Source: an uncultured delta proteobacterium
Lineage (GTDB): Bacteria > Desulfobacterota > Binatia > UBA9968
DNA length: 64,000 bases
Direction of reading: 5' to 3'
NCBI GenBank assembly: GCA_963745835.1
Contig: CAVUZH010000018.1
Span: 352,001-416,000 of the forward strand
Position 1 is the first letter of the stretch; each line of letters starts with the position of its first letter. A program made the position numbers and the translations under genes. This document shows, in pieces, positions 15,343 to 56,124 of this stretch. Below the pieces are notes generated by a model that was given only the letters and a program-made list of their open reading frames with translations, was not told the origin of the DNA and did no database searches.

Positions 15343-15360
15343 ATTGGACTAAGGTCCAAT
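15343..15360 (+). promoter_or_regulatory. Palindromic regulator box 1 (ATTGGACTAAGGTCCAAT)
   Basis: One of 8 copies; -10-like TAGAAT at 15383-88. Confidence 0.8.
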
Positions 15361-15401
15361 ATACGGCTCTCTTTACCTTTAATAGAATTCACTCCGTACA
15401 A

Positions 15402-15554
15402 GTAATCCTTATCACCGCTTACGACGAACCGAGCGCATCCTAGCGGGCTCTGGTAAGCGGAGCCATAGCTTTCTTGCGCCCAGCCTTCAACAATGAATTG
15501 CTCATGGAGGCCCGGCGCAGAGCCTTCAACGCGGTGGACAAGAGGGTGAAGTGA
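15402..15554 (+). pseudogene. Decayed single-domain response regulator (C-terminal half)
   Basis: Manual translation VILITAYDEPSAS*RALVSGAIAFLRPAFNNELLMEARRRA aligns with LIFITAHDQVGVREKALAAGAVAFLRKPIGDELLIETLREA of 45384-45812; internal TAG at 15441, 5' half missing. Confidence 0.75.
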
Positions 15555-15776
15555 ATGCCGGATCCTTTCGGTTGATTGAGTGGCGCCTGCACGCCCGTAT
15601 ACAGAAGAAAGAATTCCAACTATCAAAGCCGAAGCTCGAAGTCTTCAATGTAGAGAATCACAACTTCTAAACAGACTTGTATTTAGAAGTTGGCGATGCC
15701 ATGCGAATTTAAACTTCAGAAGTGGTTTCGACTGTCGAGCTTGAAATTCCCGGTTTACATTACGAGGAGCTATTCA

Positions 15777-17459
15777 ATGACAGATTGCATGAATTTGTTT
15801 CAACATCGGGCAGTTAGTCTATCATGGCTGGTATTCGTCCTCGCGATCTTGGTTTTTCAGCCGGTGATCGCGTTGGCCGCTCAGCCCGCCTACGAGCCGC
15901 CCACAACGCTAAGCGCATCGAAGATCCTACCGCCCGATCTTCTAGCTGGTCCGAACCACCGGGTGGAAGAGAAAGTCTCCAACGATGGTTATCTCAATAC
16001 TTACCGAGTGGGGTCGAAATTCGGCACCTTTGCCGTCCTATCAACGCCTATGCTGAGAAAGCGCATCGGCGAAATCAACGCGCTCGTGCGGATGGAGCAG
16101 ATCGAAGGTACCAAGGAATTCACGTCATCGCTCAAAGAAGCCGGGACAGACACCTTAGTGGGTTTCAAGAATCTTGTCACCCAGCCGGTGGATACGGTTA
16201 AAGGCGCGGCTTCGGGAATAGGCGCCGCATTTCAAAGGGCGGGCGACGCGCTTACGGGACCCACGCGCAGCGAGGCGGAGGATAACCGAGTCAAAGATCT
16301 GATCGGTTTCTCCAAAACCAAGCGGGAGTACGCCTATAACCTCGGGGTCGATGCCTATAGCGATAACCAAAAACTCCAAGACCGGCTCGACGAAATTGCT
16401 TGGGCCGGCTACGCCGGCGGGATGACCTGGGCGGCGGCGATGGCCGCGGTGCCGGGGGGCGCCGGCTTGGCGATCACGATCTCGGGAACTAACCACCTGT
16501 TAAACGAGGTTTTTCGCACTACGCCGCCAGTCGAGCTGCGCCGAATGAATGCGGAAAAACTCAAGGCGATGCAGGTGCATCCTGAAGTCGCCGAGGCGTT
16601 CCTAAACAATTCGTTATACTCGCCGCGCCATCAAACGCTCCTAGTCCACGCTTTGGACGAGATGAAGGGCGTAGGCAACCGTGCGACGTTCGTTCGACTC
16701 GCCGCCGCTAGCCCCAACAAAGACCTCGCTTTTTTCCGTGAACGGCAGGCCGAAATGTATGCGGGCTACCACAAGGCGGTCGCGCCAGTGGAAACCTTTG
16801 TCGCGCTGGGCGAATTTGCCGCGGTACGAACCAAGGCCAACGAAATTGTTTTTAATGTGCCGCTGGATCATCTCCTTTGGACTGAAGCGATGGCGAAGTT
16901 GTTGACCGCTGCCGATGCCCGTGTGACTCAATCGAGCCGGCCGGCCAATAAGCAATTATGGGTCACCGGCACCGTCAGCGCCCGGGCCAAGAAGGAAATC
17001 GAAACTCGGGGCTGGCGGATCCAAGAGCGAACTGAGGAGCGGTTGCTCAGCTGGAGCCAAAATTATCCTAAATACGAAAAGTCGGACGATAGAGTGCCGT
17101 CGGGTTTAGTCAAGCTGAACTTAAAGTCTGTCGGAGCTGTCGTTGGCAGCAGTTCCGGCGACGGCGTTCTCAGCTATCAAGGAAAGGATTACCCATTCAC
17201 GATTTCAGGGTATAGCTTGGGCGATGTCGGTGCATCCAACTTCGAAGGTGCCGGCAAGGTTTATGATCTTAAAAGCTTGAATGACTTTTCCGGCAACTAT
17301 GCAGCTGCCCAGGCAGCTTTTGCCGTTGGAGGGGGTCAAAGCGCACTATCCATGAGCAACAGCAAGGGTGTGACGGTCATCGTCCTCGCGAACCAAGGCA
17401 AAGAGTCCGGAACACGCCTGAGTCTCGGTCCGTCCGGCGTCACTTTCAAGCTCAAATAG
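15777..17459 (+). CDS. Secreted hypothetical protein with C-terminal DUF1134/EipA-like beta domain
   Basis: Signal peptide, RBS GAGGAG; C-terminal G.G.L.YQGKDYPF...G.VYDLKSL.DFSG.Y domain paralogous to 50575-51030. Confidence 0.72.
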   Translation: MTDCMNLFQHRAVSLSWLVFVLAILVFQPVIALAAQPAYEPPTTLSASKILPPDLLAGPNHRVEEKVSNDGYLNTYRVGSKFGTFAVLSTPMLRKRIGEINALVRMEQIEGTKEFTSSLKEAGTDTLVGFKNLVTQPVDTVKGAASGIGAAFQRAGDALTGPTRSEAEDNRVKDLIGFSKTKREYAYNLGVDAYSDNQKLQDRLDEIAWAGYAGGMTWAAAMAAVPGGAGLAITISGTNHLLNEVFRTTPPVELRRMNAEKLKAMQVHPEVAEAFLNNSLYSPRHQTLLVHALDEMKGVGNRATFVRLAAASPNKDLAFFRERQAEMYAGYHKAVAPVETFVALGEFAAVRTKANEIVFNVPLDHLLWTEAMAKLLTAADARVTQSSRPANKQLWVTGTVSARAKKEIETRGWRIQERTEERLLSWSQNYPKYEKSDDRVPSGLVKLNLKSVGAVVGSSSGDGVLSYQGKDYPFTISGYSLGDVGASNFEGAGKVYDLKSLNDFSGNYAAAQAAFAVGGGQSALSMSNSKGVTVIVLANQGKESGTRLSLGPSGVTFKLK

Positions 17460-17510
17460 AAGCCAGCGCCCGAAGATAAGCGATCGAAACGCCGTAAGAC
17501 GAGAACGCCG

Positions 17511-18644
17511 ATGGAAACAGAAGGTCAGATTTCTTTTCGGCGCGAAGATGCTACGACATTGCGGGTGCGCTTTTCGGGCACGTGGCGGTTGCGCCGTGGA
17601 TTGCCCACCGCCGCATTACTCGAGCGCGAGCTAAAATCATCCGGCAATGTGCGGGGCATTACTTTTGACGCCGATGAGCTGGCTTTCTGGGACAGCAGTG
17701 TTCTAACTTTTCTGGTTGAGGTCTCGGAACTCTGCCGCCGCCGCGGCGTCCACATGGACCGTACAGGACTGCCTGCCGGTGTGCGGCGGCTCTTGGATTT
17801 GGCCGAGGCGGTGCCGGAGAAAAAAGGCGCGCGCAAGGAGACGGCCGAAACGCCTTTTCTTGAACGGCTCGGCAACACTGCGATCGGCTACGGCACTTCT
17901 CTCGGAGAGATGCTGAGATTTCTCGGCGAGATGACCCTCACCTTTGGTCGGCTGTTCCGCATGAAGGCAAGGTTTCGCGCGATTGATCTTCTTCTGTTAA
18001 TCCAGCAGTGCGGCGCTCAGGCGCTGCCGATCGTTACGCTAATCAGCTTTTTGGTCGGTGTGATTCTGGCGTTTGTCGGCGCGATCCAACTAAAACAATT
18101 CGGCGCGCAGATCTATGTTGCGGATCTAGTTGGTATCGCGATGATTCGCGAGATGGGCGCGATGATGACCGGCATTATCATGGCGGGCCGGACCGGCGCA
18201 GCGTTCGCCGCGCAGCTCGGGACGATGAAAGTCACTCAGGAAATCGACGCCTTTACCACCATGGGCTTTTCGCCGTTGGAGTTTCTCGTGTTGCCGCGCG
18301 TCGTCGCGCTGGTCTTGATGATGCCTTTGTTATGCCTTTACTCCGACTTCGTCGGCATTTTGGGAGGCGCTGCGGTTGGTTTGGGCATGCTCGACCTCTC
18401 CTGGACCACCTATTTTCGGGAAACCGCGAACGCCATCAGATTGACGGACGTTTTCGGCGGCGTTTTCAAAAGTTCGGTATACGGCGTGCTGATCGCCCTA
18501 TCCGGCTGTTTGCGGGGCATTCAATGCGGCAATAGTTCCTCGGCTGTCGGCGATGCGGCAACGTCCGCCGTGGTCACGGGCATCGTTGCGATCGTGGTCG
18601 CTTGCGGGATTTTTGCCGTGGTGTTCTACGTGCTGGGAATCTGA
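17511..18644 (+). CDS. mlaE: MlaE-family ABC permease with N-terminal STAS-like domain
   Basis: REMGAMMTGIIMAGRTGAAFAAQLGTMKVTQEIDA; VGDAATSAVV. Confidence 0.9.
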   Translation: METEGQISFRREDATTLRVRFSGTWRLRRGLPTAALLERELKSSGNVRGITFDADELAFWDSSVLTFLVEVSELCRRRGVHMDRTGLPAGVRRLLDLAEAVPEKKGARKETAETPFLERLGNTAIGYGTSLGEMLRFLGEMTLTFGRLFRMKARFRAIDLLLLIQQCGAQALPIVTLISFLVGVILAFVGAIQLKQFGAQIYVADLVGIAMIREMGAMMTGIIMAGRTGAAFAAQLGTMKVTQEIDAFTTMGFSPLEFLVLPRVVALVLMMPLLCLYSDFVGILGGAAVGLGMLDLSWTTYFRETANAIRLTDVFGGVFKSSVYGVLIALSGCLRGIQCGNSSSAVGDAATSAVVTGIVAIVVACGIFAVVFYVLGI

Positions 18645-18674
18645 GTTGACGCCTAACCAAAAAGGAATAAGGCG

Positions 18675-18818
18675 AAAACTCGAAATTCGAAATCCGAAAT
18701 TCGAGACAAATCAAATGATCAAAAAGCAAAATTCCAAACAAGCTATTTATGGAATCCGGATTTTTGGATTCGAGTGTTTCCGTTTGTTTCGGATTTCGAG
18801 CTTCGGATTTCGGATTTT
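18675..18818. repeat. Imperfect inverted repeat built from CGAAAT(T/C) heptamers
   Basis: Left aaaactcgaaattcgaaatccgaaattcgagacaaa pairs with right tttgtttcggatttcgagcttcggatttcggatttt; AT-rich insert between mlaE and mlaF. Confidence 0.75.
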
Positions 18819-18835
18819 AAATCGAGATTAATGGT

Positions 18836-19621
18836 ATGGCCGCCGGATTTGGGAACGAAAACGGAACCAAGGCGCATATCACCGTGCGCAATCTGACAAT
18901 GGCTTACGGGACTTTTGTTCTGATGCGTGATCTCACCTTCACCATCAATCACGGCGATGTCTTCATCATCATGGGCGGCAGCGGTAGCGGTAAGAGCACG
19001 TTGCTGCGACATATGATCGGCCTTAACGAACCGGCCAAGGGAGAAATTTTCTATGGCAGTGAAAACTTCACTAAAGCCGATCCGGCAAAAAGGCTGGAAA
19101 TGGTCAGACGTATGGGCGTGCTGTTTCAGAGCGGCGGACTGTGGAGCTCGATGACTTTAGCAGAAAACGTCGGTTTGGCGCTCGGCGAGTATACCGACTT
19201 GAGTCCGCAAGAAATCCGCGAGGTCGCCTCACTGAAACTAGCTCTGGTCGGCTTGAAGGGGTTCGAAGACTACTATCCAAGCCAGATCAGCGGCGGTATG
19301 CAGAAGCGCGCCGGCTTGGCCCGCGCAATGGCGATGGATCCGGAAATCCTGTTCTTCGACGAGCCCTCCGCGGGTCTCGATCCGATCAGCTCGCGGTTGC
19401 TCGACGACTTGATTCTGGAGCTGCGCGACAGTTTGGGTGCGACGGTTGTCGTGGTTACCCACGAGCTGGCAAGCATATTTACCATCGGCAACAACAGTGT
19501 ATTCCTCGACACTGAAACCAGGACGATAATCGCGGGCGGTGATCCGAAGGAACTGCTAGCTCATTCGCCAAATCCGACGGTGCATCGCTTCCTCACCCGC
19601 GCAGAAGAGGAAAGAGTATGA
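18836..19621 (+). CDS. mlaF: MlaF-family ABC ATP-binding protein
   Basis: Walker A GGSGSGKS, signature ISGGMQKR, FFDEPSAGLDP, VTHEL. Confidence 0.92.
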   Translation: MAAGFGNENGTKAHITVRNLTMAYGTFVLMRDLTFTINHGDVFIIMGGSGSGKSTLLRHMIGLNEPAKGEIFYGSENFTKADPAKRLEMVRRMGVLFQSGGLWSSMTLAENVGLALGEYTDLSPQEIREVASLKLALVGLKGFEDYYPSQISGGMQKRAGLARAMAMDPEILFFDEPSAGLDPISSRLLDDLILELRDSLGATVVVVTHELASIFTIGNNSVFLDTETRTIIAGGDPKELLAHSPNPTVHRFLTRAEEERV

Positions 19622-20628
19622 AGAAAAAGATCAGCCCGACCCTGATTGGCGGCTTTGTCATTGGCGCGCTGGTTTTATTGGTGATCGCCGTCATCGCCTT
19701 CGGCTCCGGACAGCTTTTTCGCAAGACTCGAGAATTCGTGCTCTATTTCGATAGTTCCGTCAACGGCCTGCGCATCGGGGCGCCGGTAAAGGTGAGGGGC
19801 GTGGAAATCGGCGCCGTGAAAGACATTCGCTTCCAGCTCGACGAGGATACCCAGGTCAACAAAATTCCAGTAATCATCGAGATCGACCTGGAAAAGTTGA
19901 CATCGCGGGGAGCCACCGCGGCTGCCGCAGAGGATCTCGATTCTTTTCGCAAATTCATTGCTGAACGCGGCCTTCGCGGACAGCTCATGACCGAAAGCCT
20001 GTTGACAGGATTGCTCTACGTCGGGCTCGACTTTTTTCCGGAGGCTCCGATCAATCTCGTGCAGAAAACAGACCGCCACCACAAATATCCGGAAATTCCA
20101 ACAATGCCTAGCTACCTTGAGCAGGCTCAGGATACGGCAAGCAAAATACTCTCGAAACTGGAGGAGGTCGATTTCAAGGGAATGATGGATTCCGCGAAGA
20201 ACGCCGTGGACGGAATTTCCCGGCTGGTCAACTCGCCCTCTATTCAATCCTCGCTCAAAAGTTTGGAGCGGACCATGCCGAAGATAGATGAGGCAGTGGT
20301 CGGAATCCACAAACTGACAACCAACCTGGATGGGAATATCACCCAACTCTCAGCAAATCTTCAACAAAGCTCTGACGCGGCCCGCGACGCAATGAAACAA
20401 GCTGCCTTGGCGATGCAGCAAGCAGATGCATCGCTCAAAGAAGCCGAAGCAGCGATGACGAACATTCGCGGTATTACCGATCCGGATTCTGCGCCTTTCT
20501 ATGAGCTAAGCAGAAGCCTGCGAGAAGTTTCGGCCGCTGCCCGTTCTCTGCGTCTACTGTCCAATTATGTTGAACGGAATCCCAGAGCCCTCATCTTCGG
20601 TAAACCGGATCGTGGAGAGGGACGATGA
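19618..20628 (+). CDS. MCE/MlaD (PqiB-like) protein
   Basis: N-terminal TM, SVNGLRIGAPVKVRGVEIGAV MCE motif, helical tail ending ERNPRALIFG. Confidence 0.88.
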   Translation: MKKKISPTLIGGFVIGALVLLVIAVIAFGSGQLFRKTREFVLYFDSSVNGLRIGAPVKVRGVEIGAVKDIRFQLDEDTQVNKIPVIIEIDLEKLTSRGATAAAAEDLDSFRKFIAERGLRGQLMTESLLTGLLYVGLDFFPEAPINLVQKTDRHHKYPEIPTMPSYLEQAQDTASKILSKLEEVDFKGMMDSAKNAVDGISRLVNSPSIQSSLKSLERTMPKIDEAVVGIHKLTTNLDGNITQLSANLQQSSDAARDAMKQAALAMQQADASLKEAEAAMTNIRGITDPDSAPFYELSRSLREVSAAARSLRLLSNYVERNPRALIFGKPDRGEGR

Positions 20629-21257
20629 AGCGATGGATCAAGACGGTCATGAAGGTTGGACTCATCGCTCTGTCACTTGCGGCTTGTGGGACGTTTTCGC
20701 CCAGGCCCGACCCCTCCAGGTTTTTCACGCTTTCGTCGCTGCCTCAGGTGGAACAAGGGTCGCTGAGAAACTCAACCAGACCGGAGAAGATGTTTCTCGG
20801 GATTGGCCCGATCAGATTTCCCGGCTATCTCGATCGACAAGAAATAGTTGTCCGCAGCGCGCAGAATAGATTTGATGTCTCTGAGACCGATCGCTGGGCG
20901 GAACCGCTGCAGGAAAATTTCTCGCGAGTTTTAGCGGAAAATCTTGCGCTGCTCCTGAACACGGATCTGATTATAATTTACCCGTGGTCGCCCACCCAGC
21001 GGCCGCGTTATCAAGTCGAGATCGATGTGCTGCGTCTCGAGACTAACAGCGAACTTAATGGTCAATTATTTGCACGCTGGTCAGTCGTCGCTGGCGCAGA
21101 CAAGAAAGTGGCTGTCGTCAAAGAGTCGCGCATCATCCGGAATGCCAAAGAAAAGTCGACCGATGGTTCCGTCGCCGCTCTGAGCGAGGCTGTCGGAGAT
21201 TTTAGTCGCGAAATTGCCGAGACCGTGAGCGCGATCGACAGAAAGAATGAGCGGTAG
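20625..21257 (+). CDS. PqiC-like ABC auxiliary lipoprotein
   Basis: Lipobox LAAC; PGYLDRQEIV...RWAEPL motif. Confidence 0.85.
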   Translation: MKRWIKTVMKVGLIALSLAACGTFSPRPDPSRFFTLSSLPQVEQGSLRNSTRPEKMFLGIGPIRFPGYLDRQEIVVRSAQNRFDVSETDRWAEPLQENFSRVLAENLALLLNTDLIIIYPWSPTQRPRYQVEIDVLRLETNSELNGQLFARWSVVAGADKKVAVVKESRIIRNAKEKSTDGSVAALSEAVGDFSREIAETVSAIDRKNER

Positions 21258-21328
21258 TGGAACATCACCCTGGCTCTGGTATGCTACGCTTCTCTCGCGG
21301 GCTGCAGCGCCGCTAACTGTCGGGAGGT

Positions 21329-23340
21329 ATGGCAGGACATGCACGGATCTACCGTAACAACAGTATCGTTCATGCTATGGGCGCATTAGCTGAAGTATCG
21401 GCGAGAAGCTTGCGCCGATCATCGAGATGGCTCGTTCTGATAACACTGGCCATCGCGCTCATTGCATCGGGTTGCGCCACGCCGATCGGCGTACGGTACG
21501 TGGAGCCCCGTGTTGCATACCAGTCGCTCACCGCGAATGTGCTTTCCGCTGACCAGCCTAGCTCATTTTCCGCGCGCGAGCTGATGAATCTGAATCTGTA
21601 CGAACGGTTTGATGAGGATCCGGAGAAAGCGCTTGCCGAGATGCATGCGGGGTTGGCGGCCAAGGGTGATGAGGATCGTGTCTTCGCACTCGCTGAGCTG
21701 TCATTTGTCTACGCCAATGACAGCGGCGAGCGATCACACTATCTTGCCGCGGCAGTATACGCATATGCTTTTCTTTTCCCTGGCAAAGACGGTACGCCGC
21801 CGAAAGGGCTGGATCCGCGATTCCGATGGGCGGCGGATATTTACAATCAGGCGCTCACCCGCGCCGCGATGTTAGACGACCGAGAGTATCCGGTTCCCAG
21901 GGGCGGTACGTTCAACCTGCCTTTCGGTGAGATTACGGTCCAATTCGATCAGAACCAACTACTCTGGGCGGGCTTTCGTCTCAAGGATTTTGTTCCTGCG
22001 GCCGACGTTGAGGTGCGTGGGTTGCGCAATCGTTACCGTATCCCCGGTGTCGGGGCGCCTCTTTCGGCAAAGATAGAACCTGTTGAGGGGGCCGCGAGCA
22101 AACAGTCCGCGCGTATTCCACTAAGAATGAGGATTCCCGCGACCGCTTTTCTTCGCCTCGACGACCCGCGTGGCGCGCTCAAGTCGGGAAAATTGCGTGG
22201 CAAGCTCGAGTTCTATACGCCCGATTCGGCCCGCTCATCAAAATTGAAGGTGTCGATGTGCCGATCGAATACGAAACCACCTCTGCTCTCGCTCTCACTT
22301 TAGAGGGAGCGCCGATTTGGGACTTTGAAATTGCCGGTTTTCGGTCCGGAGACTTCACCCTCAGTGTTCCAGGGGCGTTGCGCGAGGGGCTTTTCATGAT
22401 CCGGCCGCATCGAACCGGACGGATACCGGTCGTGCTCGTCCATGGCACCGCGTCGAGCCCGGCTCGCTGGGCGGAACTGGTTAACGAACTAGAGAATGAT
22501 CCGCGGTTTTTGGAAAATTACGAGATCTGGCTGTTCATGTACAACACAGGGAACCCCATCGCTGATTCGGCGGCACGAATGCGGGCAGCGCTACTAAAGG
22601 TTGTCGCGGATCTCGACCCGGAGAAAAAGGATCCGGGGCTTCAGCAGATGGTTGTTATCGGCCACAGCCAGGGCGGACTGCTAACTAAGATGATGGTTAT
22701 CGATCCCGGTACCCGCTTCTGGGATGGAGTGTTTACAGTACCACCCGACGAGCTTGACGTTAGAGCGGAGACTCGTGATTTTTTAAGAAATGCCCTCATT
22801 TTCAAGCCGCTGACTTTTGTGCGACGTGTAGTTTTCGTCGCGACGCCGCATCGCGGCAGCTATCAAGCGCTCGGGTTCTTAGGAGGCTTTACCTCGTGGT
22901 TGATCCGGCTTCCCGGTAATTTGACCCGTCTTGGTGTTGAGGCGGCGACCTTGCAAAGCCGAGGACTGCTCAGGGGACCGTTCACGGGCGTTCCGACCGC
23001 CATAACCAACATGAATCCTTCGAACCGCTTTATTCAAGAGCTAGCAGCGATGCCTATCATTAAAGGTGTTACCGCTCACTCCATCATCGCTGTGCAGGGC
23101 GATGGCCCAAAAGAGAAAGGCGCCGATGGCATCGTCATGTATGAGAGCGCTCATATCGACGGCGTGGCTTCGGAAAAGGTAGTCCGCTCGAGCCACTCGA
23201 CTCAAGGACATCCCGAGACTATTCAGGAGATCAAACGTATTTTGTTGGAGCATGCTGAGGGATTGCGTGGTCCGGAGCAAGTTGTTTCACAGCCGGCAGC
23301 GGCCGGCAATAGCGGGCCGGCGGCTAGCGATCTTTATTAG
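21329..23340 (+). CDS. Alpha/beta-hydrolase lipoprotein, one frameshift at ~22235
   Basis: Lipobox ASGC; PVVLVHG, nucleophile elbow GHSQGG, ATPHRGS, DGIV...SAH; ORFs 21329-22303 and 22258-23340 join with one added base; true start may be later. Confidence 0.8.
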
Positions 23341-25015: not shown

Positions 25016-25033
25016 TATTGGACTAAAGTCCAA
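25016..25033 (+). promoter_or_regulatory. Palindromic regulator box 2 (TATTGGACTAAAGTCCAA)
   Basis: Motif copy ~117 bp upstream of the alkylsulfatase. Confidence 0.8.
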
Positions 25034-25149
25034 CATCTATCTGTCCTATTCTTTGGCAAAACATCACGTTTAAACGATTTGAGCGCGCCTACCACTGTCC
25101 TTCGATACACGGGCAAATCTCGAAAAAGCCAAACAGAGAAAGGGAAATA

Positions 25150-42556: not shown

Positions 42557-45263
42557 ATGAGCACCACTGTTCGCGTCGCGTTCCAAGGAACAAAAACACG
42601 GCGATCAAATTTATTGGTTGTACCGGCGCTGTGCGCGCTGCTTATTTTCGCGGCCGCAACCCTGGCGAGCGGCGCGGATAGCGACCGGCCCAAGAGAGTC
42701 TTGATCATTTCCACCGGAAGCCGGCTGGCGCCGGGTTTCATGCTCGTGGACCAGCAATTGACCCAAGCGTTGGCGAAAGTCCCGACGCCTATCGAAACCT
42801 ATGCGGAGAATCTCGATATCGGTCGATTTCCCACGGAACGGTTTGGGCGAATTTTTAGCGACTATCTAACAGAAAAATACGCCGAGCAGCCTCCCGACCT
42901 GATCATATTAGTGTACGTCGGCAACTTGGGGATTGCCGGGAAGTTGTTGCAGCAACGATTTCCAGGAACGCCTGTGGTCGTTGCGGGGTTCACAGAAGAA
43001 GAAGTTGGCAGGGATCAGTTTGGTCCGCTTGTCAGTGGCGTAGCGCAACGGGTCGATCCCCGCGCGACCCTGGATCTCATCGTCCGTCTACAACCCGAGA
43101 CCCGCCGCATCGTCGTCATTGCTGGCACGGCGGAGGTCGACCGTCACGTCCTTGACCGTGTGAAAGAGGCTGCGCGCTCGTTTGAGGGGCGGATCGAGTT
43201 CGATTTCTGGGACAATCGCCCATTGGCTGAATTGCGTCAGGCCGTAGCAGTTTTGCCAGCACAAACTGCCATTCTCTTTGCCAGGATGTTTCGTGACGGC
43301 TCAGGTCGGCCGGTTATTTCCGCGGAGATGGGCCGGTCGATTGCTCAGTGGGCCAACGTTCCCGTGTATGTCATGACGGAGACGACTTTAGGCACAGGCG
43401 CCGTGGGTGGATCGGTGGCGAGTCTCGAGGCTTTCGGCAAACGGGCGGGCGAGCTGGCGCGCCTCATTTTAACCAGCAAGTCGCCAGCGTCTTTGCCGTT
43501 CGAAATCCGCACAGAGAGTGTGCCGATGTTCGATTGGCGCGCGCTCAAACGCTGGGGCATCAGTGAAAACCGTCTGCCTGCCGGGCAGCGTCGTACGAGT
43601 TCAAACCGCAGTCATGTGGGAACAATATCATTGGTACATTATCGCTGCGCTATCATCATTCTTGTGCTGCAGGCGGCGATGATCGCCGAATTGCTGCTGC
43701 AGCCTCGCGCCGGCGCCGGGTGCGAAGCGGAGCTGCGAGAGAGTCAGCAATTGATGGAACTTGCTGCCAGTGCCGGCGAAGTTGGGACTGTGGTCGCGTA
43801 ATTTGACCGATGGTAAGTTTCTGGGCCAATGCACCATGCCGGTCTCTGTATGGCTTCGGCGCGCATGATGCACTCCGGTTCGATGACATGCGTGTCGCGT
43901 GTGCATCCCGATGATCGAGCCCGTATGATCTCTGAGGTCGAGCGTGCGCACAAGCGGCCGGGCTGCCATTTCAAGGAGAGTTTCGCACTGTCCTTCGCCG
44001 AACGGTGATGAACGGTGGGTGTTAGCGAAGGGCCGCATGACAACTGATCGAGCCGGCGGCGACGGGATGGGCGGAGGACTCGGTGTCCATTGGATATCAC
44101 CGAGCGCAAGCGCGCGGAGGAAGCACTGGAAGAGGAGCGGTCATTTCTCCGCCAGGTCATCGACATCGAGCCGAACTTTATCTTTGCTAAAGACCGTGAA
44201 GGGCGATTCACACTGGCGAATCGAGCGGTGGCCGATGCCTACGGCACCACAGTTGAAAACTTGATCGGTAAAACCGACGCGGATTTCAATCGCAATGCCG
44301 AGCAAGTCGAGTCCTTCAAGCGCGAAGGATCTAGAGGTGATCGACACATTGCAGGAGCGCTTCATAGCGGAAGAGCAAATCACGGATTCCCGAGGGAGAG
44401 TGCGCTGGCTCCAAACAGTGAAGCGCCCGATCATTCAAAGCGACGGTTCGGCGAAGCAAGTCCTGGGCGCATCCACCGATATAACCCGGCGCAAAGAAAC
44501 CGAATTAGAACTGCAGGAACAGCGTGCGGAGCTGGCTCACGTAGCGCGCGTCTCAATGATGGGCGAGCTTGCGGCATCGCTTGCCCACGAGTTGAACCAG
44601 CCGCTCACCGCGATTCTCAGTAACGCCCAAGCCGCTCTCCGTTTTATGTCGAGCAAACCGGCCGACCTGGAAGAGGTGCGCGAGATTCTCCAGGACATTG
44701 TCAGTGATAATAGCCGTGCCGGCGAGGTTATCCGCCGTATGCGGGCGCTGGTAAAGAAGGAAGAACTCGAGTTCGCAACGCTGGATATCGCGAGCCTCGT
44801 TCGCGATGTCATGGCCTTGGTGCACAGCGATGCGATTCTCCAAAACGTTCGAATCTCACTCGAACTTGAAGACAACCTGCCGCCGGTGCGGGGCGATCGA
44901 GTGCAGCTGCAGCAGGTCGTGCTCAATATCATGTTGAATGCGTTTGATGCGATGAAGCAATGTCCGGCGAGCGAGCGCAAGGTCAAATTGCAGGCGGGGG
45001 CTCATGGCCTCGAGTCAATCAAGGTAGCTGTGACGGACTGCGGAACTGGTCTGAGCGGCGACAATCTGGACAAAATTTTTCAACCCTTTTACACGAGCAA
45101 AAAAGATGGCCTCGGTATCGGGCTGTCGATCTGTCGATCGATTGTCGAAGCCCACGGCGGACGTCTCTGGGCGGAGAACAACAACGGTGCGGGTGCAACC
45201 TTTTACTTCACCCTACCCGTGGGAGGAGGCGGCAAGCAGCCATCAGTGAACGATCATCAGTAA
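42557..45263 (+). pseudogene. Sensor histidine kinase (periplasmic SBP-like sensor, TM, PAS x2, HisKA/HATPase), multiply frameshifted 43580-44330
   Basis: Fragments 42557-43801, 44090-44330 and 44295-45263; H-box GELAASLAHELNQPLTAILSNAQAA identical to the kinase at 12451; may be intact in vivo if indels are errors. Confidence 0.78.
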
Positions 45264-45315: not shown

Positions 45316-45333
45316 ATTGGACCAAAGTCCAAT
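45316..45333 (+). promoter_or_regulatory. Palindromic regulator box 5 (ATTGGACCAAAGTCCAAT)
   Basis: Followed by ATAC; TAGAGT -10-like at 45356-61; upstream of single-domain REC gene. Confidence 0.82.
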
Positions 45334-45383: not shown

Positions 45384-45812
45384 ATGTATTTTATTAATGC
45401 TGGCGACAACTGCGGACAGGTCAATGCCTTGACAGAATCCAAGCCCCTGATCGCTATCGTAGATGATGATGAATCTGTTTGCCGCGCGCTGAGACGGCTG
45501 CTGCGGTCGTTGACTATGGACGCAGAAACCTTCAGCTCGGGGCAAGAACTTCTCGATTCACTTGATGCGACGCCTTCATTTCAGCCCGACTGTTTGGTTG
45601 TCGATGTGCAAATGCCGGGAATGAACGGCTTTGACGTGCAGGATCGGCTCACCACGGCCGGCAGCACGATCCCATTGATTTTTATCACGGCGCACGACCA
45701 GGTCGGAGTCCGTGAGAAGGCACTGGCCGCCGGGGCGGTGGCCTTCTTGCGTAAGCCCATCGGCGATGAATTGCTCATAGAGACGTTGCGTGAAGCCCTG
45801 AAAAGCAAGTGA
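45384..45812 (+). CDS. Single-domain response regulator (receiver only)
   Basis: IVDDDES, VDVQMPGMNG, FITAH, FLRKP; start may be ~45420. Confidence 0.9.
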   Translation: MYFINAGDNCGQVNALTESKPLIAIVDDDESVCRALRRLLRSLTMDAETFSSGQELLDSLDATPSFQPDCLVVDVQMPGMNGFDVQDRLTTAGSTIPLIFITAHDQVGVREKALAAGAVAFLRKPIGDELLIETLREALKSK

Positions 45813-46215
45813 TCCGGCAGCATCAAATCGATCCGGACGTCTCGAAAACAGGAAACCCGAATACTGGAACAACATTTTTTATCGAATTACGAGCTTGCTG
45901 GGGGCGGATAAGGTTTACGTTCAAGGGCCTGAACGATTGTTCCGGAAACCGGCTGCCCAAGCTGGGTTTGGTGGTGCGTGGAGGACGGGCGCGGTGAATA
46001 CGGTGCGGTGTCAACATAGTCGTTTTGCCCAGTGGGACCAATGAAGCCGGAACTCGATAACCTGGGGCCCGCGCGGGTTAAATCAAGATGAAGAAACCCG
46101 GCCATCGAAACGGATGTAAGACTTAGAAAGCCATGAAGCGGAGATACGAAAATCCTCCTGATCAGTCCGTTGGATGGGTTGCGTCTATAACCACGGCGGA
46201 AGAAGAAGGTTCACG

Positions 46216-47543
46216 ATGAAGGCGAAAGTTGGTACACGGCTGTTGGCCTGGCTTATGGTCGCGCTTCTCACGGTCCCGTCGGGTTCTCTGGGCCAGGAGC
46301 CGCAGGCTGGAGCAGTCTTCAGGCCGGAAGAATTGGAGCAGGTTTTGGCGCCGATCGCGCTGTATCCGGATCCACTGGTTTCGCAAATCTTGATGGCATC
46401 GACCTATCCGCTGGAGGTCGCGATCGCCGACCGCTGGACAAAACAAAACAGCAGCCTTAAGGGCGACGCGTTAACCAAGGCACTTGAAGCGCAAGACTGG
46501 GATGCGAGTGTAAAGTCGCTGGTGAACTTTCCTCAGGTGCTCACAATGATGAGCGACAAGCTCGACTGGACGCAAAAAATGGGGGATGCCTTTTTGCAGG
46601 ATCAAAAAAAGGTCTTGGATACGATCCAGAGCCTGCGCGCCAAAGCACAGGCGTCCGGGAATCTCCAGACGACCAAAGAACAAACCGTAATCGTCGAAGA
46701 GAAGATTATAAAGATCGAACCGGCTAGTCCTCAAGTCGTTTACGTACCGACATATAACCCTACGGTCGTGTATGGCGCGTGGCCCTACCCGGCTTATCCG
46801 CCGTATTCCTACTATCCGCCCGGATACGTAGCTACGACCGCTGCGTTTTCCTTTGCAGCGGGCGTGGCCATGGGCGCGGCGTGGGGCTACGCCTGGGGTG
46901 GCTGCAACTGGAACGGGGGCGATGTCGATGTCGACGTCAACCGCAACACGACTATTAATAACAATATCAACCGAGACCAAGCCAAGCAGAAGCTCCAGGA
47001 AAGGGGACAGGCTAATCAAGCAGGACAGGGAAAATGGCAGCACAATCCGGAAAATCGCAAAGGCGTTTCCTATAGGGACCAGGGAACGGCAGAAAAATAC
47101 AACAGAGCAAGTAGCAATGATGCGGTCAAGTCAAGGGAGGAGTTTCGCGGACGGTCGGACCAGGGGAGACAAGACCTTGCCCGCGATGGAGGCGGAGATC
47201 GCGGCGGGGTTGGAGACCGAGGTGGGGTTGGAGATCGCGGCGGAGCGGGCGGTCAAGGAGGAGTTGGCGATCGCGGAGGTGCCGGAGATCGCGGTGGCGC
47301 CGGCGATCGTGGAGGGCCGGGTGATCGAAGTGGCCCGAGTCAAGTCGCCAGCAGTGGTGGGGCCAGTAGAGGCGGCGCCGGAAGCGGGGCCGGCGCCTTT
47401 GAAGGCGTCGATCGCGGTGGTAGCGCAGCGCGTAGCGCCAGCGAGCGCGGCAGCGCCAGCCGCGGAAGCTCTGGCGGCGGTGGGGCAAGGGCGGTGGGGG
47501 CGGCGGCGCGAGAGGTGGAGGCGGCGGGGGACGACGAAGATAG
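46216..47543 (+). CDS. DUF3300 family exported protein with Gly/Arg-rich tail (probable frameshift ~47489)
   Basis: LAPIALYPDPL..QILMASTYPLE, WDASVKSL..FP.VL, YVP.YNP.VVYG.W; adding one G restores GARGGGGGGARGGGGGGRRR* ending at 47543. Confidence 0.86.
47188..47335 (+). repeat. Degenerate 18-bp coding tandem repeat (GDRGGx)n
   Basis: GGDRGGVGDRGGVGDRGGAGGQGGVGDRGGAGDRGGAGDRGGPGDR. Confidence 0.8.
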
Positions 47544-47703
47544 ATTATTTCCGTGGCCGGGCTGTCAGGTTTCGGGTTGGAAAAATGGAACACTGGAAGG
47601 ATGGAACGTGGAAGGATGAATTAAATGAAATACCGGTGTTCCGGTGTTAGCGTCGGCCTTAGGAAGCTGCGATGCTTGCGCTCATTTTCAGATGGGGGAA
47701 AAG

Positions 47704-48669
47704 ATGGAATTTTCGAAGTTGCGCGCAAATAAGAAGAAATCGATCCGACAGCGCGTTCGTCTGACACTTTACACTGCGGTGATCCTGACGTTCGTATGCG
47801 CCGCAACGTCCTTTGTGGCGCTCGCCCAGCAAAAGAGTTTCTCCTCGGCCGAAGAGGCTGTCGAAGCCGCGGTGACGGCGGCGCGAAATAACAACGAGAA
47901 GGAGATGCTGGCGATTTTTGGCGCTCAAGCGAAAGGACTATTGTTTTCGGCCGATCCCGTTGCCGACAAACATAGGCGCGAGGAGTTTCTTGATGCCTAT
48001 GCCGAAAGTCACCGGCTCGTCAGCGAAGGGCAACACACGATTTTGCTCGTGGGCAAGCAGGATTGGCCCTTACCGATCCCCCTCGTGAAAAGAGGTAACG
48101 CCTGGATTTTCGATACCGAGGAAGGCAAGGAGGAGATTCTAAACCGGAGGATCGGCGAGAACGAGCTGTACACGATCAAAACATTGCTGGCGGTTGTCGA
48201 TGCCCAGCGCGAGTACGCGATGGAAGACCGCGACCGCGATGGCCTTTTGGAGTATGCGCAGAAATTCGTAAGCGACCCCGGCAAAAAAAATGGCTTGTAC
48301 TGGGAGGCGAAGCCCGGGGAACGACAGAGTCCTCTGGGACCAATCATGGCGCGGGCGCGAAGCGAGGGCTATAAAGGACAGGCGTCAACCACGGCGCCTC
48401 CCTATCACGGCTACTATTACAGAATCTTAACAACGCAGGGTAAGAACGCGCCCGGCGGCGCTTACAGCTATCTTGTGAAAGGCAAAATGATTGGCGGCTT
48501 TGCCGTGGTTGCCTATCCGGCGGAGTACGGGAACTCCGGTGTGATGACCTTCGTCGTCAACCACGATGGCAATGTCTTTCAGAAGAACCTGGGTAAAAAC
48601 ACCGTCGCAACCGGCAAGAGCATGAAAGAATACAATGTCGATCCAACATGGAGCGAAGTTAAGGAGTGA
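47704..48669 (+). CDS. DUF2950 family protein
   Basis: W.LPIPLVK....W.FD...G.EEI..RRIG.NE, GLYW, PYHGYYYRIL, YG.SGVMTF.V; typical partner of DUF3300. Confidence 0.88.
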   Translation: MEFSKLRANKKKSIRQRVRLTLYTAVILTFVCAATSFVALAQQKSFSSAEEAVEAAVTAARNNNEKEMLAIFGAQAKGLLFSADPVADKHRREEFLDAYAESHRLVSEGQHTILLVGKQDWPLPIPLVKRGNAWIFDTEEGKEEILNRRIGENELYTIKTLLAVVDAQREYAMEDRDRDGLLEYAQKFVSDPGKKNGLYWEAKPGERQSPLGPIMARARSEGYKGQASTTAPPYHGYYYRILTTQGKNAPGGAYSYLVKGKMIGGFAVVAYPAEYGNSGVMTFVVNHDGNVFQKNLGKNTVATGKSMKEYNVDPTWSEVKE

Positions 48670-49339: not shown

Positions 49340-49356
49340 ATTGGACCAAGGTCCAA
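49340..49356 (+). promoter_or_regulatory. Palindromic regulator box 6 (ATTGGACCAAGGTCCAA)
   Basis: GCTACAAAT -10-like at 49377-85; ~109 bp upstream of ATG 49465. Confidence 0.8.
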
Positions 49357-49464
49357 CAGGCGGCCATTTAACTCCCGCTACAAATCCTTCTCAAGCAAAA
49401 TCGGTATTCCAGCGCGGATTAGTGATGATGCTCAGTTCGGCAGCTTTAATGGAGGTGAATAGAA

Positions 49465-50412: not shown

Positions 50413-50432
50413 TATTGGACCAAGGTCCAATA
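50413..50432 (+). promoter_or_regulatory. Palindromic regulator box 7 (TATTGGACCAAGGTCCAATA)
   Basis: Perfect arms; GCTAGAAG -10-like at 50452-59. Confidence 0.82.
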
Positions 50433-51140: not shown

Positions 51141-52844
51141 ATGGATCCGCTTGTTAAAGCGTTGCAGCAAAATCCGGAACTGGCCATCTTTCTCACACTC
51201 GCCATCGGTTTTTCGCTCGGCCGCGTTAAGATCGGCAGCTTCAGCTTGGGAACTGTCGTTGGCACTCTTTTCGCCGGTGTATTGGTCGGACAGCTCGATA
51301 TCAAAGTTCCATCACTGGTAAAGACCGTCTTTTTTGATCTCTTTCTCTTTACGACCGGCTACAAAGTCGGACCGCAATTTTTTCGCGGCCTCAAGGGCGA
51401 CGCACTGCCTCAGATGGCGCTCACGTTAGTCCTCTGCACAACCTGTCTTGCGACGGCTTTCTTCGCGGCCAAGCTCCTTGGCTACGACATCGGTACGACA
51501 GCCGGCTTGCTGGCGGGAGCTTTTACCGAATCGACTGTGATCGGTACGGCGGGAGATGCGATCAATCGGCTGGCGATTTCAGCGGAAGAGAAAAGCCGCC
51601 TTTTAAATAATATTCCCGTTGCTTATGCGGTTACTTACCTCGTCGGAACCACGGCGGTTGTCTGGTTCCTTCCGAAAATTGGACCGAAGTTAATGGGGGT
51701 AAACCTCAAGGATGAGGCCAAGAAGATGCAGGCCCAAGTGTCGGGTGGAGTGGAGGCACAGCCTGGTATCATATCTGCCTCCCGCTCCTTCGATGTACGC
51801 GCCTATCGCGTAACCAACGAAAAACTTTTTAACAAAACCATCGCCGAGCTCGAGGCGATGCCTCAGGAGGTCAGAGTTTTCATTCAGCGCATCCGCCGCG
51901 AGGGCGCAATCATTGAACCCGAACCCCAGACGGTTATTCGCCAAGGCGATGTCATCGCAGTGATGGCGAGGCCTGAGGTTCTGGTCGAGCGCAGCAGCGT
52001 CGTGGGACCTGAGATCGACGACAAAGGGCTGCTCGATTTCCCCATTGAGGTGCTCGATGTTGTAATGACAAATAAAACTCTCGTCGATAAGACCCTCGAC
52101 AAACTATCGAAATCGGAGCCGTGGCGAACGCATTTTCGCGGGGTCTTTTTGCGTAAGCTCACACGCGCGGGACAAGAGATGCCGATTACTCGCACGACGC
52201 AAGTCGAACGCGGCGACGTGTTGAGTCTGGTGGGTGCCAAAGGCGATGTCGATCGTGCCGTCGCCGTCCTGGGTTATGCCGACTGGCCAACCAGCGCCAC
52301 GGACATGATCTTCGTCGGCACCGGTATCTTTGTCGGCGGGCTCGTCGGTCTTCTTACTGTCACCGTCGCCGGCCTCCCAATTACGCTTACGGCCAGCGGC
52401 GGCGCCCTCATCATGGGGCTGGTCTTCGGCTGGCTACGATCCATGTTCCCCGTGTTCGGCCGCATACCCGAAGCTGCTATGTGGGTTTTCGACATGGTCG
52501 GGTTGAGCGTTTTCATCGGCGTAGTCGGCCTGAGCGCAGGGCCGAGCTTTATTGCCGGGCTTCAGGAGTCCGGCATTAGCCTTGTCTTCGTAGGTTTTGT
52601 CGCGGCGTTGCTCCCTCACGCCGTGGCCATTCTCTTCGGTCGATATGTCTTGAAGATGAATCCGGTGATCCTATTGGGTGCCTGCTCGGGGGCCGGCACG
52701 ATGACGGCTGCATTGCGCGCGATCCAAGACGAGGCGCAGAGCAAGTTGCCCGCTTTGGGCTATACGGTGCCTTACGCTGTCGGCAACATTATTCTCACTG
52801 CTTGGGGACCGGTCATCGTCGCTTTGATGTCGGTTGGGAAGTGA
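51141..52844 (+). CDS. aspT: Aspartate:alanine antiporter (AAE family, two TrkA-C domains)
   Basis: PELAIFLTLAIG, FLFTTGYKVGPQFF, AYAVTYL.G, PALGYTVPYAVGN. Confidence 0.88.
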   Translation: MDPLVKALQQNPELAIFLTLAIGFSLGRVKIGSFSLGTVVGTLFAGVLVGQLDIKVPSLVKTVFFDLFLFTTGYKVGPQFFRGLKGDALPQMALTLVLCTTCLATAFFAAKLLGYDIGTTAGLLAGAFTESTVIGTAGDAINRLAISAEEKSRLLNNIPVAYAVTYLVGTTAVVWFLPKIGPKLMGVNLKDEAKKMQAQVSGGVEAQPGIISASRSFDVRAYRVTNEKLFNKTIAELEAMPQEVRVFIQRIRREGAIIEPEPQTVIRQGDVIAVMARPEVLVERSSVVGPEIDDKGLLDFPIEVLDVVMTNKTLVDKTLDKLSKSEPWRTHFRGVFLRKLTRAGQEMPITRTTQVERGDVLSLVGAKGDVDRAVAVLGYADWPTSATDMIFVGTGIFVGGLVGLLTVTVAGLPITLTASGGALIMGLVFGWLRSMFPVFGRIPEAAMWVFDMVGLSVFIGVVGLSAGPSFIAGLQESGISLVFVGFVAALLPHAVAILFGRYVLKMNPVILLGACSGAGTMTAALRAIQDEAQSKLPALGYTVPYAVGNIILTAWGPVIVALMSVGK

Positions 52845-53721: not shown

Positions 53722-55884
53722 GTGAGCTCTTCCAACAAGATTCTAATCGGACTCTGCGCCGGTGCCTTCGTCGGGATTTTCCTCGGCGAGCATGCCGGTG
53801 TGTTCAAATTCGCCGCGGATGGTTTTGTCAAGTTGCTGCAGATGAGTGTGCTGCCGTACATCACTCTCTCAATCGTCACGAGTCTGGGAAGCTTGAATTT
53901 TGCGCAGTTGAAGATTATTGGTCTTCGCGGTGGAGCGGTGCTCGTCGGCCTGTGGTGTCTCGCACTGGTTTTTACCTTCCTGATCGCGTTCACGTTTCCG
54001 GTCCTCGAGACTGCGTCATTTTTCAGCTCGACCCTGATCGAAGAGCGCCCGCCCTTCAACTTTGTCGATCTATTTATTCCGTCCAATCCGTTCCACGCGC
54101 TGTCGAACAACATCGTCCCGGCGGTCGTTCTTTTCTTTATCTTTTTCGGTGTTGCGCTTATCGGCGTCGAGCGCAAGCAAGTCGCGCTCGACGTTTTTAA
54201 TGTCGCCAAAGATGCCTTAGCCAAAGTGACCAAAGCCGTCGTGACTTTGATGCCCTATGGGGTTTTCGCCATTGCCGCAAACACGGCGGGCACGTTGAAC
54301 CTCGACCAAATCGCCCGAATTCAGGTCTACCTGATCACTTACGTGATCGTTGCTCTCCTCGTGGCTCTCTGGGTATTGCCCGGTCTGGTCGCGGCGCTCA
54401 CTCCCTTCAGCTATCGCGAGGTGCTCGGGCCGACGCGAGACGGGCTGATCACTGCATTTGTCGCGGCAGATTTGTTCATCGTCCTGCCGATCCTGATCCA
54501 GGCATGCAAGGATCTGCTAGAGCGTCGCCGGCTCGTCGACGAGCGGACAAGGGCGCTGCCGGAAGTGATCATCCCGACGTCCTTCAATTTTCCCCATACC
54601 GGCAAGCTCCTGTCCATCAGCTTCATCTTGTTCGCCGGATGGTTCGCCGATGCGGCGGTGCCGTTGTCGGAATATCCGCGTCTGGCGCTGGCCGGTCTGC
54701 TTACGTTCTTCGGCAGTCTCAATGTCGCAGTGCCGTTCCTGCTCGACCTGTTCCGGATCCCGGCCGATACGTTTCAGCTGTTCCTTGCCACCGGCGTTAT
54801 CAACTCGAGATTCGGCGCGCTGCTCGCGGCGGTCCACACGGTGGCGGTGGCACTGCTCGGAAGTGCGGCGATCGTCGGTGCGCTGCGCTTCAGCCCGGCG
54901 CGCATTGGCCGCTATGTTGTGGTCACGGCCGGGGTAACGGCTGTGACAATTGGTGGCTTGCGAGTAGCTTTCGACACCGCTCTAGCGGGAAGCTTTGCCG
55001 GTGAGGAGCTAGTCTACGGAATGCGTCCGCTCATGACCGCTGGCGATGCGCGACTGTTGAAATCGTCCGAGCTCAGCGAGGTTGGAAAAGCGGCTGCGCC
55101 GGCGGGACCGCTGCTCGACACGATCACGCGACGTGGTACGCTCCGCGTCGGCGTGTTTGCTGATCGCCTGCCGTTCGTTTTCATCGATCGAGAAGGTCAT
55201 CTGGTCGGGTTCGACGTCGAAATGGCCCAGCTCCTTGCCCGTGATCTTGGCGTCAAGGTTGAATTCGTCGAGATGGAAGCGGTCGGTCCGGAGGTGCCCC
55301 GTTTGTTGGCGACCGACACGGTCGATGTGGCGATGACGGGATTTCCAGTGACAGCGGGGCGCGCCAGCCAAATCCTTCACTCCGAGCCTTACCTGGACGA
55401 GACCCTTGCGTTCGTGGTGAAAGATCGACTGCGGGAGAGTTTTTCCAGCTGGGCTAACATACGGGAGCTCGGTAGCTTCTCTGTGCTGATTCCTGCCTTG
55501 CCGTACTTTAGCGATGTGGTAAGAACTCGCGCGCCAGCGCTCCAGCTCACACTGGCAGCCTCCATGACGCAAATCGAGCAGGCGCTTAAAAATGGTACAT
55601 CCGATGCGGTCGTGCTCCCCGCCGAGCGCGGCTCGGTTCTGAGCCTGCTCTATCCAAAGTACACCGTGGTTGTGCCGGAACCGGGGATCGTCAAGATACC
55701 GCTGGCCTATCCTGTGGCCCGCCGCGATCACGAACTTGCAGCGTTTCTCAATACATGGATCGAGCTCAAGCGGCGCGACGGTACCATCGACGCGCTTTAC
55801 GGCCACTGGATTCTCGGCAAGCAGGCCGTCAAACGCGAGCCACGCTGGTCGATCATGCGCAACGTGCTGCACTGGGTCAACTGA
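53722..55884 (+). CDS. Dicarboxylate/amino acid:cation symporter fused to C-terminal SBP_bac_3 domain
   Basis: F.KLLQM.VLPY, FIPSNPF.AL, PYGVFA; then RGTLRVG, GFDVEMA..LA.DLG, Y..WILG. Confidence 0.86.
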   Translation: MSSSNKILIGLCAGAFVGIFLGEHAGVFKFAADGFVKLLQMSVLPYITLSIVTSLGSLNFAQLKIIGLRGGAVLVGLWCLALVFTFLIAFTFPVLETASFFSSTLIEERPPFNFVDLFIPSNPFHALSNNIVPAVVLFFIFFGVALIGVERKQVALDVFNVAKDALAKVTKAVVTLMPYGVFAIAANTAGTLNLDQIARIQVYLITYVIVALLVALWVLPGLVAALTPFSYREVLGPTRDGLITAFVAADLFIVLPILIQACKDLLERRRLVDERTRALPEVIIPTSFNFPHTGKLLSISFILFAGWFADAAVPLSEYPRLALAGLLTFFGSLNVAVPFLLDLFRIPADTFQLFLATGVINSRFGALLAAVHTVAVALLGSAAIVGALRFSPARIGRYVVVTAGVTAVTIGGLRVAFDTALAGSFAGEELVYGMRPLMTAGDARLLKSSELSEVGKAAAPAGPLLDTITRRGTLRVGVFADRLPFVFIDREGHLVGFDVEMAQLLARDLGVKVEFVEMEAVGPEVPRLLATDTVDVAMTGFPVTAGRASQILHSEPYLDETLAFVVKDRLRESFSSWANIRELGSFSVLIPALPYFSDVVRTRAPALQLTLAASMTQIEQALKNGTSDAVVLPAERGSVLSLLYPKYTVVVPEPGIVKIPLAYPVARRDHELAAFLNTWIELKRRDGTIDALYGHWILGKQAVKREPRWSIMRNVLHWVN

Positions 55885-55938
55885 TCTCGTCGCAGATTAG
55901 CCCGCATTCTCAGAGGGCAAGTTTTCCTCTGTGCCGCC

Positions 55939-55956
55939 ATTGGACTAAGGTCCAAT
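55939..55956 (+). promoter_or_regulatory. Palindromic regulator box 8 (ATTGGACTAAGGTCCAAT)
   Basis: Followed by ATAC; TATAAC at 55977-82 (tandemly duplicated); upstream of RND operon. Confidence 0.82.
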
Positions 55957-56124
55957 ATACCGAATCGCGACATTTCTATAACTATTCTATAACTATGGAC
56001 TTGCACCAGAAGTTGCCGGAGCAGGAGTTTGACTCTCACCTAATGACTTGCTAGGGCTCGAAGGCTCTAAGCGACGTCGGCAAATAATCGTGGAATCGGT
56101 GCATTCAAACCATAGGGAGATAAC

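Follow-up and report, generated by a model that had tools for sequence, protein, structure and literature searches.

The palindromic box described here occurs eight times in a 64,000-nucleotide stretch of contig CAVUZH010000018.1 from an uncultured delta proteobacterium (the window), and its first copy lies directly 3' of the gene for a FixJ/StyR-type response regulator, the predicted binder. The closest described systems are those of EL222, StyR, DosR, NarL and FixJ. EL222 of Erythrobacter litoralis is a light-gated one-component LOV protein. It recognizes the consensus RGNCYWWRGNCY (PMC10521638), and it activates with its site abutting the −35 element and represses with its site between the hexamers (PMC5001607). 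StyR-type regulators, which control aromatic catabolism, read ATAAAC-N4-GTTTAT (PMC5874301), and their activating site is near −40 (PMC2442086). For DosR (DevR) of Mycobacterium tuberculosis, a probe for electrophoretic mobility shift assay and the contacts K179, K182 and N183 are described (PMC5999986); DevR requires at least two boxes per promoter (PMC3177182). At yeaR, the NarL dimer is at −43.5, and the C-terminal domain of the RNA polymerase α subunit (αCTD) is placed between the two monomers, on the minor groove from −44 to −42; its authors call this arrangement distinct from canonical class II activation (PMC10853779).

Relation to Described Systems

The first-pass annotation of the window did not recognize the box as a characterized site. 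This view could not be upheld: the core fits the EL222 consensus, 12 bp are in common with the DosR probe, and the 6-4-6 layout is that of StyR/TodT sites. The EL222 helix, EKTVKMHR, is near-identical to EKTIKVHR in the regulator described here, and the EL222 consensus fits all eight window boxes and 15 of the 17 sites on the contig. This consensus is loose, so that the fit is support and not proof. Unlike EL222, the regulator has a receiver (REC) domain and kinases and no LOV domain, and the box is longer and stricter than the EL222 site (TATT...AATA flanks).

The boxes of StyR, TodT and TmoT resemble the present one in the 6-4-6 palindrome and the AC-N4-GT core, whereas the outer bases differ, as does the helix (EVTVKVHRH in StyR, EKTIKVHRA here). 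Neither the StyR/TodT box consensus and helix nor aromatic-catabolism targets were found in this system, and an EVTVK regulator adjoining a toluene monooxygenase has no box. The DosR probe contains the same 12-bp core, GGACTAAAGTCC, the positions of K179 and K182 are kept, and Usp and respiratory genes are among the targets here. However, the half-site is TGGAC and not GGGACT, N183 is replaced by V, the kinases differ, and all 17 contig sites are single boxes, with one tandem pair on another contig; in other words, both the half-site and the multi-box promoters of the DosR regulon are lacking at these sites. The likeness to NarL at yeaR lies in a dimer site at −43.5 just upstream of the −35 element; the site sequence, helix and kinase differ. 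FixL-FixJ-FixT shares the kinase-regulator-single receiver layout, with FixT as the parallel of the single receiver. FixJ was also the best NCBIfam match of the regulator, but at 221 bits, below the equivalog cut-off of 255, and the FixJ helix is of the PRTVEVHR type.

A text search of the literature, with logo-only motifs, RegPrecise, PRODORIC and closed journals outside its scope, found no description of the box or the regulon. A PpsR table matching TTGGAC and GTCCAA was unrelated. The predicted mechanism is conventional NarL/FixJ activation, and the regulon is real, well-defined and unusually widespread.

The Eight Boxes

The first-pass annotation had listed eight intergenic boxes with a common asymmetry of the centre. 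All eight were recovered by a mismatch-tolerant scan of the window with the pattern TTGGAC-N4-GTCCAA; seven are exact, and that at 35436 has one mismatch (GACCAA). Allowing two mismatches gave zero extra sites in the window, so that the set has a sharp boundary. In 150 simulated versions of the window (first-order Markov), boxes with up to one mismatch numbered 0.14 on average and at most 2, against the eight observed. The intergenic placement was confirmed as well: all eight lie between genes that are family-supported or led by a ribosome-binding site (RBS), and none overlaps a supported gene. They are 53-484 bp from the preceding gene end and 50-416 bp from the following + strand start. The box at 50414 overlaps just the TTG 5' extension of open reading frame (ORF) 50344, the RBS-led start being at 50575. 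The centre reads YAAR on the + strand in 8/8 boxes.

Box 1, 15343..15360, + strand: directly 3' of the regulator gene; −35 slot TATACG; −10 TAGAAT at 15383-15388; ahead of a decayed receiver gene as well as ORF 15777 and the Mla/Pqi genes
Box 2, 25017..25034, + strand: ahead of an alkylsulfatase gene (25150); neither −35 nor −10 clear at the canonical positions
Box 3, 29497..29514, + strand: −35 slot TATACA; −10 TAGACA at 29538; ahead of the genes for a two-repeat periplasmic protein (29669) and OmpA
Box 4, 35436..35453, + strand: one mismatch; −35 slot TATACA; no clear −10; ahead of OprB porin and carbonic anhydrase genes
Box 5, 45316..45333, + strand: −35 slot TATACA; −10 TAGAGT at 45356; ahead of the single receiver gene and DUF3300-DUF2950
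Box 6, 49340..49357, + strand: −10-like TACAAA at 49379; ahead of the genes for a secreted protein (49465) and a glycine-zipper protein
Box 7, 50414..50431, + strand: −10 TAGAAG at 50454; ahead of ORF 50575 and aspT
Box 8, 55939..55956, + strand: −35 slot TATACC; −10-like TATAAC at 55977; ahead of the RND pump genes (MFP, transporter, OEP) and nrfH

The six −10-like hexamers noted earlier are all present, 21-24 bp past the box; the boxes at 25017 and 35436 have none there. The TATAC said to follow the box is found at five of the eight; 50414 has TATAA, and 25017 and 49340 lack it. Past box 8, a 10-bp tandem repeat (55973-55993) gives two TATAAC hexamers one helical turn apart.

Promoter Geometry

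The geometry was examined on 145 sites, taken from loci found by a scan of GTDB genomes and aligned on the YAAR centre. The aligned consensus is a 20-bp palindrome, TATTGGAC-YAAR-GTCCAATA. The scan pattern itself dictated the three bases that directly follow the box, but it did not dictate the −10 peak. This second sharp peak (T 68, A 76 and, at the sixth position, T 61%) starts exactly 23 bp after GTCCAA. The hexamer TAnnnT stands at +23 in 66/145 sites (56/129 after removal of near-duplicates), compared with 59 of 8845 background positions (0.67%); TA alone is at +23 in 94 of the 145, against eight on the mirror side.

When the TAnnnT hexamer is taken as −12 to −7, the box centre falls at −43.5. 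The six bases after GTCCAA, most commonly TATACA, then fill the −35 slot with a 17-bp spacer to the −10. The TATAC that had been counted as part of the box is thus real as a sequence and is best read as a weak −35 element. Likewise, the earlier proposal of class II geometry, centred at −42 to −45, was right in its activator spacing, which is sharpened here to about −43.5, whereas the arrangement is that of NarL at yeaR and not that of FNR/CRP. In this alignment an inverted repeat stands at a fixed place just upstream of the sigma70 −35 element, the start sites being placed from the −10. The oriented central AA coincides with the αCTD positions at yeaR, and this might be the reason for the asymmetry of the box.

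The Regulator and its Link to the Box

14506..15195, + strand: FixJ/StyR-type response regulator; REC and GerE helix-turn-helix domains; helix EKTIKVHR; proposed binder

The box is very probably the operator of this regulator, predicted from sequence comparison to activate sigma70 promoters. The REC domain keeps its acidic pocket, phospho-Asp and Lys. Among structures, StyR matches best over the full length (E 6e-60), and the closest named homologues and tree neighbours are from Candidatus Binatia. Five of the 40 relatives have an orthologue of at least 69% identity, and in every case a box follows a short distance downstream. A module of kinase, regulator, box and single receiver recurs in Binatia, Desulfobacterota, Caballeronia, Achromobacter and Undibacterium.

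Box-linked regulators have the helix EKT[IV]K[VA]HR in common. This helix was searched for as a DNA pattern, independent of the box. Among 121 Paraburkholderia genomes, the helix is present in 41, about a third of the species sampled. At least one box was found in 36/41 helix-positive and 8/80 helix-negative genomes, and at least two boxes in 30/41 and 1/80, respectively. Among 200 other genomes of the bacterium's own class, eight are helix-positive, and all five genomes with at least two boxes are among those eight; four helix-negative genomes have a single box, in line with three control matches. In five genomes reached via the box, the helix occurs once in each, 116-756 bp from a box. Furthermore, for regulators fetched without using the box, a box lies within 800 bp downstream of 12/15 with EKT[IV]K[VA]HR and 0/5 with another helix. 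The box thus tracks the regulator helix across genomes. This co-occurrence in two samples, the conserved module, the likeness to the EL222 helix and the fit to its consensus all favour the earlier choice of the regulator at 14506-15195 as the most plausible binder.

Several observations weigh against this assignment. Three genomes have boxes (G001 four, G012 two, G021 one) and no regulator was found in them, the assemblies being 84-96% complete in 600-640 contigs. No near box was seen at 3 of the 15 helix-positive regulators above, and no exact box in 5 of the 41 Paraburkholderia and 3 of the 8 class genomes with the helix, two of the latter having variant boxes. At two of the eight boxes in the window, no −10 stands in the canonical position. 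In the tree, the box-bearing regulators form no supported single clade, and ETTVK, EVTVK and ERTIK paralogues are interspersed under open branches. It should be mentioned that the genome counts ignore kinship; kin are not independent, so that Fisher values overstate the association.

Distribution of the Box

In the whole-genome scan, a check proposed at first, the sites cluster on this contig. Of the 16 exact palindromes in the 7.28-Mb genome, 13 lie here at 367-466 kb, and four variant sites raise the cluster to 17 over about 100 kb. It reaches the window-equivalent of about 115,500, about 50 kb beyond the window end. The eight boxes first reported are all real, and the set continues with nine further sites on the contig. 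On other contigs there are a tandem pair (C14), three sites (C25) and one weak site (C13). The tandem pair, the only one in the genome, consists of two abutting boxes with a 16-bp period (C14:105254-105285, locus L006) before an OmpA-lipoprotein operon. The flanks of the boxes show a mean identity of 0.25 upstream and 0.29 downstream; being unrelated, they indicate a motif and not a repeat element.

In the 40 relatives the exact box is nearly all-or-none: five have 4-12 copies, three have 1-2 and 32 have none, and the reversed control pattern gave zero matches. The GTDB scan, which used a 20-mer, matched at least 118 stretches, compared with about 4 expected by arithmetic for the entire collection; a few single matches may be due to chance. 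By record titles, the matches listed include Binatia, several Desulfobacterota groups, Paraburkholderia, Caballeronia, Achromobacter and Undibacterium, as well as alpha- and gammaproteobacteria, Verrucomicrobia, Gemmataceae, Nitrospira and Methylomirabilis. A tblastn match to an island protein was obtained in 75 of 80 long-flank loci, partly with generic paralogues. The box was also seen in cultured genomes of other phyla.

The GC content is 56.4% against 54-55%, and no tRNA genes were found in the window or 100 kb of flank. The region is called an island on account of its patchy distribution, and not of composition or an integration site. In four loci labelled Verrucomicrobiia (L080), Nitrospira (L084), Chloroflexota (L045) and Bacteroidetes (L069), island genes are 65-97% identical to window genes; L080 and L084 show 85-97% identity to Binatia genes. 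These genes may reflect recent transfer or mis-binning. On the symbiosis plasmid of Paraburkholderia phenoliruptrix (NC_018696.1, locus L190), the regulator gene is accompanied by three boxes, aspT, DUF3300/2950 and glycogen genes; from this content, the regulon is present on a conjugative plasmid.

Sensors and Receivers

12689..14503, + strand: MASE1-PAS histidine kinase, directly upstream of the regulator; first candidate cognate sensor
42557..45263, + strand: periplasmic binding-protein-PAS-PAS histidine kinase (HisKA), split here; second candidate cognate sensor
45384..45812, + strand: single-domain receiver under box 5, intact; conserved first target
15394..15533, + strand: remnant of a receiver gene behind box 1, decayed and interrupted by an in-frame stop

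In relatives the periplasmic kinase is one ORF of 937-1102 amino acids, which often lies immediately ahead of the gene for the regulator or for the MASE1 kinase. Its second PAS domain aligns in full with the PAS domain of BvgS, the closest match (E 1.7e-12), whereas the FixL alignment is limited to the first PAS and the beginning of the next. There was no FixL match to the PAS of the MASE1 kinase. The single receiver is possibly a feedback phosphate sink, and the receiver remnant is a relic of the kinase-regulator-box-receiver module.

Frameshift-split or truncated genes were seen in the window (38241-39831 and 42557-45263) and in loci L001 (3624-5945) and L002 (2973-3743 and 10526-13304). They are the radical SAM/DUF4070, periplasmic kinase, Fdh, AspA and MGH1-like hydrolase genes. 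Since relatives have whole ORFs, assembly indels are likelier than decay.

Predicted Target Genes

15777..23340, + strand: target block with a secreted protein, MlaE/F/D, a PqiC-like lipoprotein and an alpha/beta hydrolase pair
46174..48669, + strand: DUF3300 and DUF2950, conserved targets across phyla
51141..52844, + strand: AspT aspartate:alanine antiporter (TIGR03802, above cut-off)
56125..61890, + strand: RND efflux operon under box 8

Family annotation of the targets covered 58 + 11 ORFs, 88 ORFs, and 87 of 150 ORFs, and operon membership past the first gene is predicted. In this genome the predicted targets are Mla/Pqi, alkylsulfatase, MscS, OmpA, OprB, carbonic anhydrase, Usp, DUF3300/2950, AspT and RND; NrfHA, Fdh, FrdCA, FumC, a DASS carrier, AspA, a Ca/H antiporter and Zwf; and MGH1-like and amylase-like hydrolases, patatins, GltI and a cardiolipin-synthase-like protein. 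Elsewhere they are Na/H exchangers, Orn/Lys/Arg and acetoacetate decarboxylases, DUF308, BON, TerC, bestrophin-like proteins, sulfatases, DUF2092, DUF3313, GlgX and phosphoketolase. Respiratory targets are mainly in Binatia-like loci. The original term, envelope regulon, is justified by the envelope targets but too narrow: antiporters, respiration, storage carbohydrates and many DUFs are also included.

The label DUF1134-like, given earlier to two secreted proteins, was not borne out, as Pfam gives no match even at E 5. The products of ORFs 15777-17459 and 50575-51030 have in common a beta-rich C-terminal domain of 125 amino acids (38% identity, E 6e-18). This domain has no Pfam or PDB match, and its single-sequence model was unusable (pLDDT 32). 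Each of the two ORFs is the first gene behind a box, and both are found again in relatives. The ORF at 53722-55884 encodes a sodium:dicarboxylate symporter fused to a periplasmic SBP_bac_3 domain; several relatives conserve it immediately ahead of the RND box. In two other loci, boxes precede a 915-amino-acid Orn/Lys/Arg decarboxylase gene beside two aspT-like genes (L102, 5017-7764) and Undibacterium chemoreceptor genes (L105, 6148-10191).

Alternative Explanations

The binder might be another protein: a conserved NarL-type protein encoded on contig C13 (helix EKTVKTHL), the AraC protein of the island, or the activator of sigma54 promoters at 1841-5584. Both helix lysines are also present in the C13 protein, which has the sole other GerE domain above cut-off in the genome, and a few genomes have boxes without a FixJ-type gene. 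However, homologues of the C13 protein occur in 9 of 24 box-less relatives, and none was found in G008, which has seven boxes. Near-box matches in the pattern-scan loci numbered three for AraC and ten for the sigma54 activator, the latter mostly generic PAS or AAA matches, and the fixed sigma70-type −10 does not suit sigma54. A different binder is thus very unlikely. A comparably small chance is given to two other roles, as a site of repression or as a promoter element read by an alternative sigma factor; in their favour, the box is very uniform and abuts the −35 slot. Its position is upstream of the −35 and not between −35 and −10, the place from which EL222 represses. A 20-bp palindrome tied to a response-regulator helix is not known as a sigma element. 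The patchy island and its several frameshift-split genes could suggest that the boxes were left behind by a mobile repeat or arose as an artefact of assembly. This explanation was rejected as hardly conceivable, given the unrelated flanks, the fixed −10 spacing, the box in cultured genomes of other phyla and the co-occurrence with the helix.

With the same regulator and site, the regulon might instead be mainly a hypoxia and dormancy regulon of the DosR kind that senses oxygen or redox state. The core in common with the DosR site is consistent with this, as are targets such as fdh, frdCA, nrfHA, fumC, aspA and Usp, and DUF2950 and DUF3300 are reported to be induced in rhizobial nodule RNA-seq (PMC4653623). 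On the other hand, the FixL alignment to the periplasmic kinase breaks off soon after entering the second PAS, whereas the BvgS PAS aligns fully, and no heme-PAS evidence was found for the kinases. Moreover, the respiratory targets are mostly confined to Binatia-like loci, and Bphy_5883-5885 were not induced in bacteroids (PMC5748707). A mainly hypoxic role is therefore considered unlikely.

Proposed Mechanism

Under the preferred reading, the protein encoded at 14506-15195 is the activator, and it would be phosphorylated by one or both of the kinases of the island (MASE1-PAS; periplasmic binding protein-PAS-PAS). The dimer would bind two TGGAC half-sites via the helix E-K-T-I-K-V-H, and by homology the two lysines matching K179 and K182 of DosR might contact the site. 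Centred near −43.5, it would abut the weak −35 (TATACA), 17 bp from the TAnnnT −10, a spacing shown by the site statistics, with predicted start sites. Sigma70 RNA polymerase would be recruited as by NarL at yeaR, with the central AA as the likely minor-groove contact of αCTD. About 20 promoters of this genome would be switched on, including that of the single receiver gene, which could provide negative feedback.

Possible Signal and Physiological Role

The targets point to pH and ion balance, envelope repair and low-energy metabolism, and our best guess of the role is survival under acid and low-energy stress. Acid or weak acid with envelope stress is a plausible signal, at somewhat less than an even chance; low oxygen, osmotic or general stress, and some other signal each appear improbable. 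Two results bear on the signal. No aspartate 4-decarboxylase (AspD) above cut-off was found in the genome, which weakens the classic decarboxylase acid-resistance reading for this organism. In addition, the box-led genes of Paraburkholderia phymatum STM815 corresponding to Bphy_5883-5885 were unchanged in bacteroids or nitrogen starvation; this mapping is by gene order, concerns three genes, and the strain is known here by its boxes alone.

A broader proposal is put forward tentatively, as doubtful on balance: the regulon would serve stress survival, be portable across phyla and correspond to DosR in Gram-negative bacteria. Its operator and helix would be near-identical from Binatia and Desulfobacterota to Burkholderiaceae, Verrucomicrobia and Planctomycetes, its islands would move horizontally, and a BvgS/EvgS-like kinase would sense acid or envelope stress. 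DUF3300, DUF2950, DUF2092, DUF3313 and other unknown proteins would then share a common role.

A testable regulon is now in hand, with regulator, exact operator, promoter geometry and target list, and it is present in culturable Paraburkholderia. Its signal, once found, would give many conserved proteins of unknown function a common role. The system seems to add a clean case to the FixJ/NarL helix-to-site code, in which EKTxK would read GGAC. It is predicted that optogenetic EL222 can drive these natural promoters, and that hosts with this regulator may cross-react with EL222 circuits.

Upstream Neighbours

Positions 1-15000 of the window contain no box. Just upstream of the regulon's kinase, the large sigma54 activator (MASE1-PAS-GAF-PAS, 1841-5584) adjoins a PAS kinase (5909-6967).

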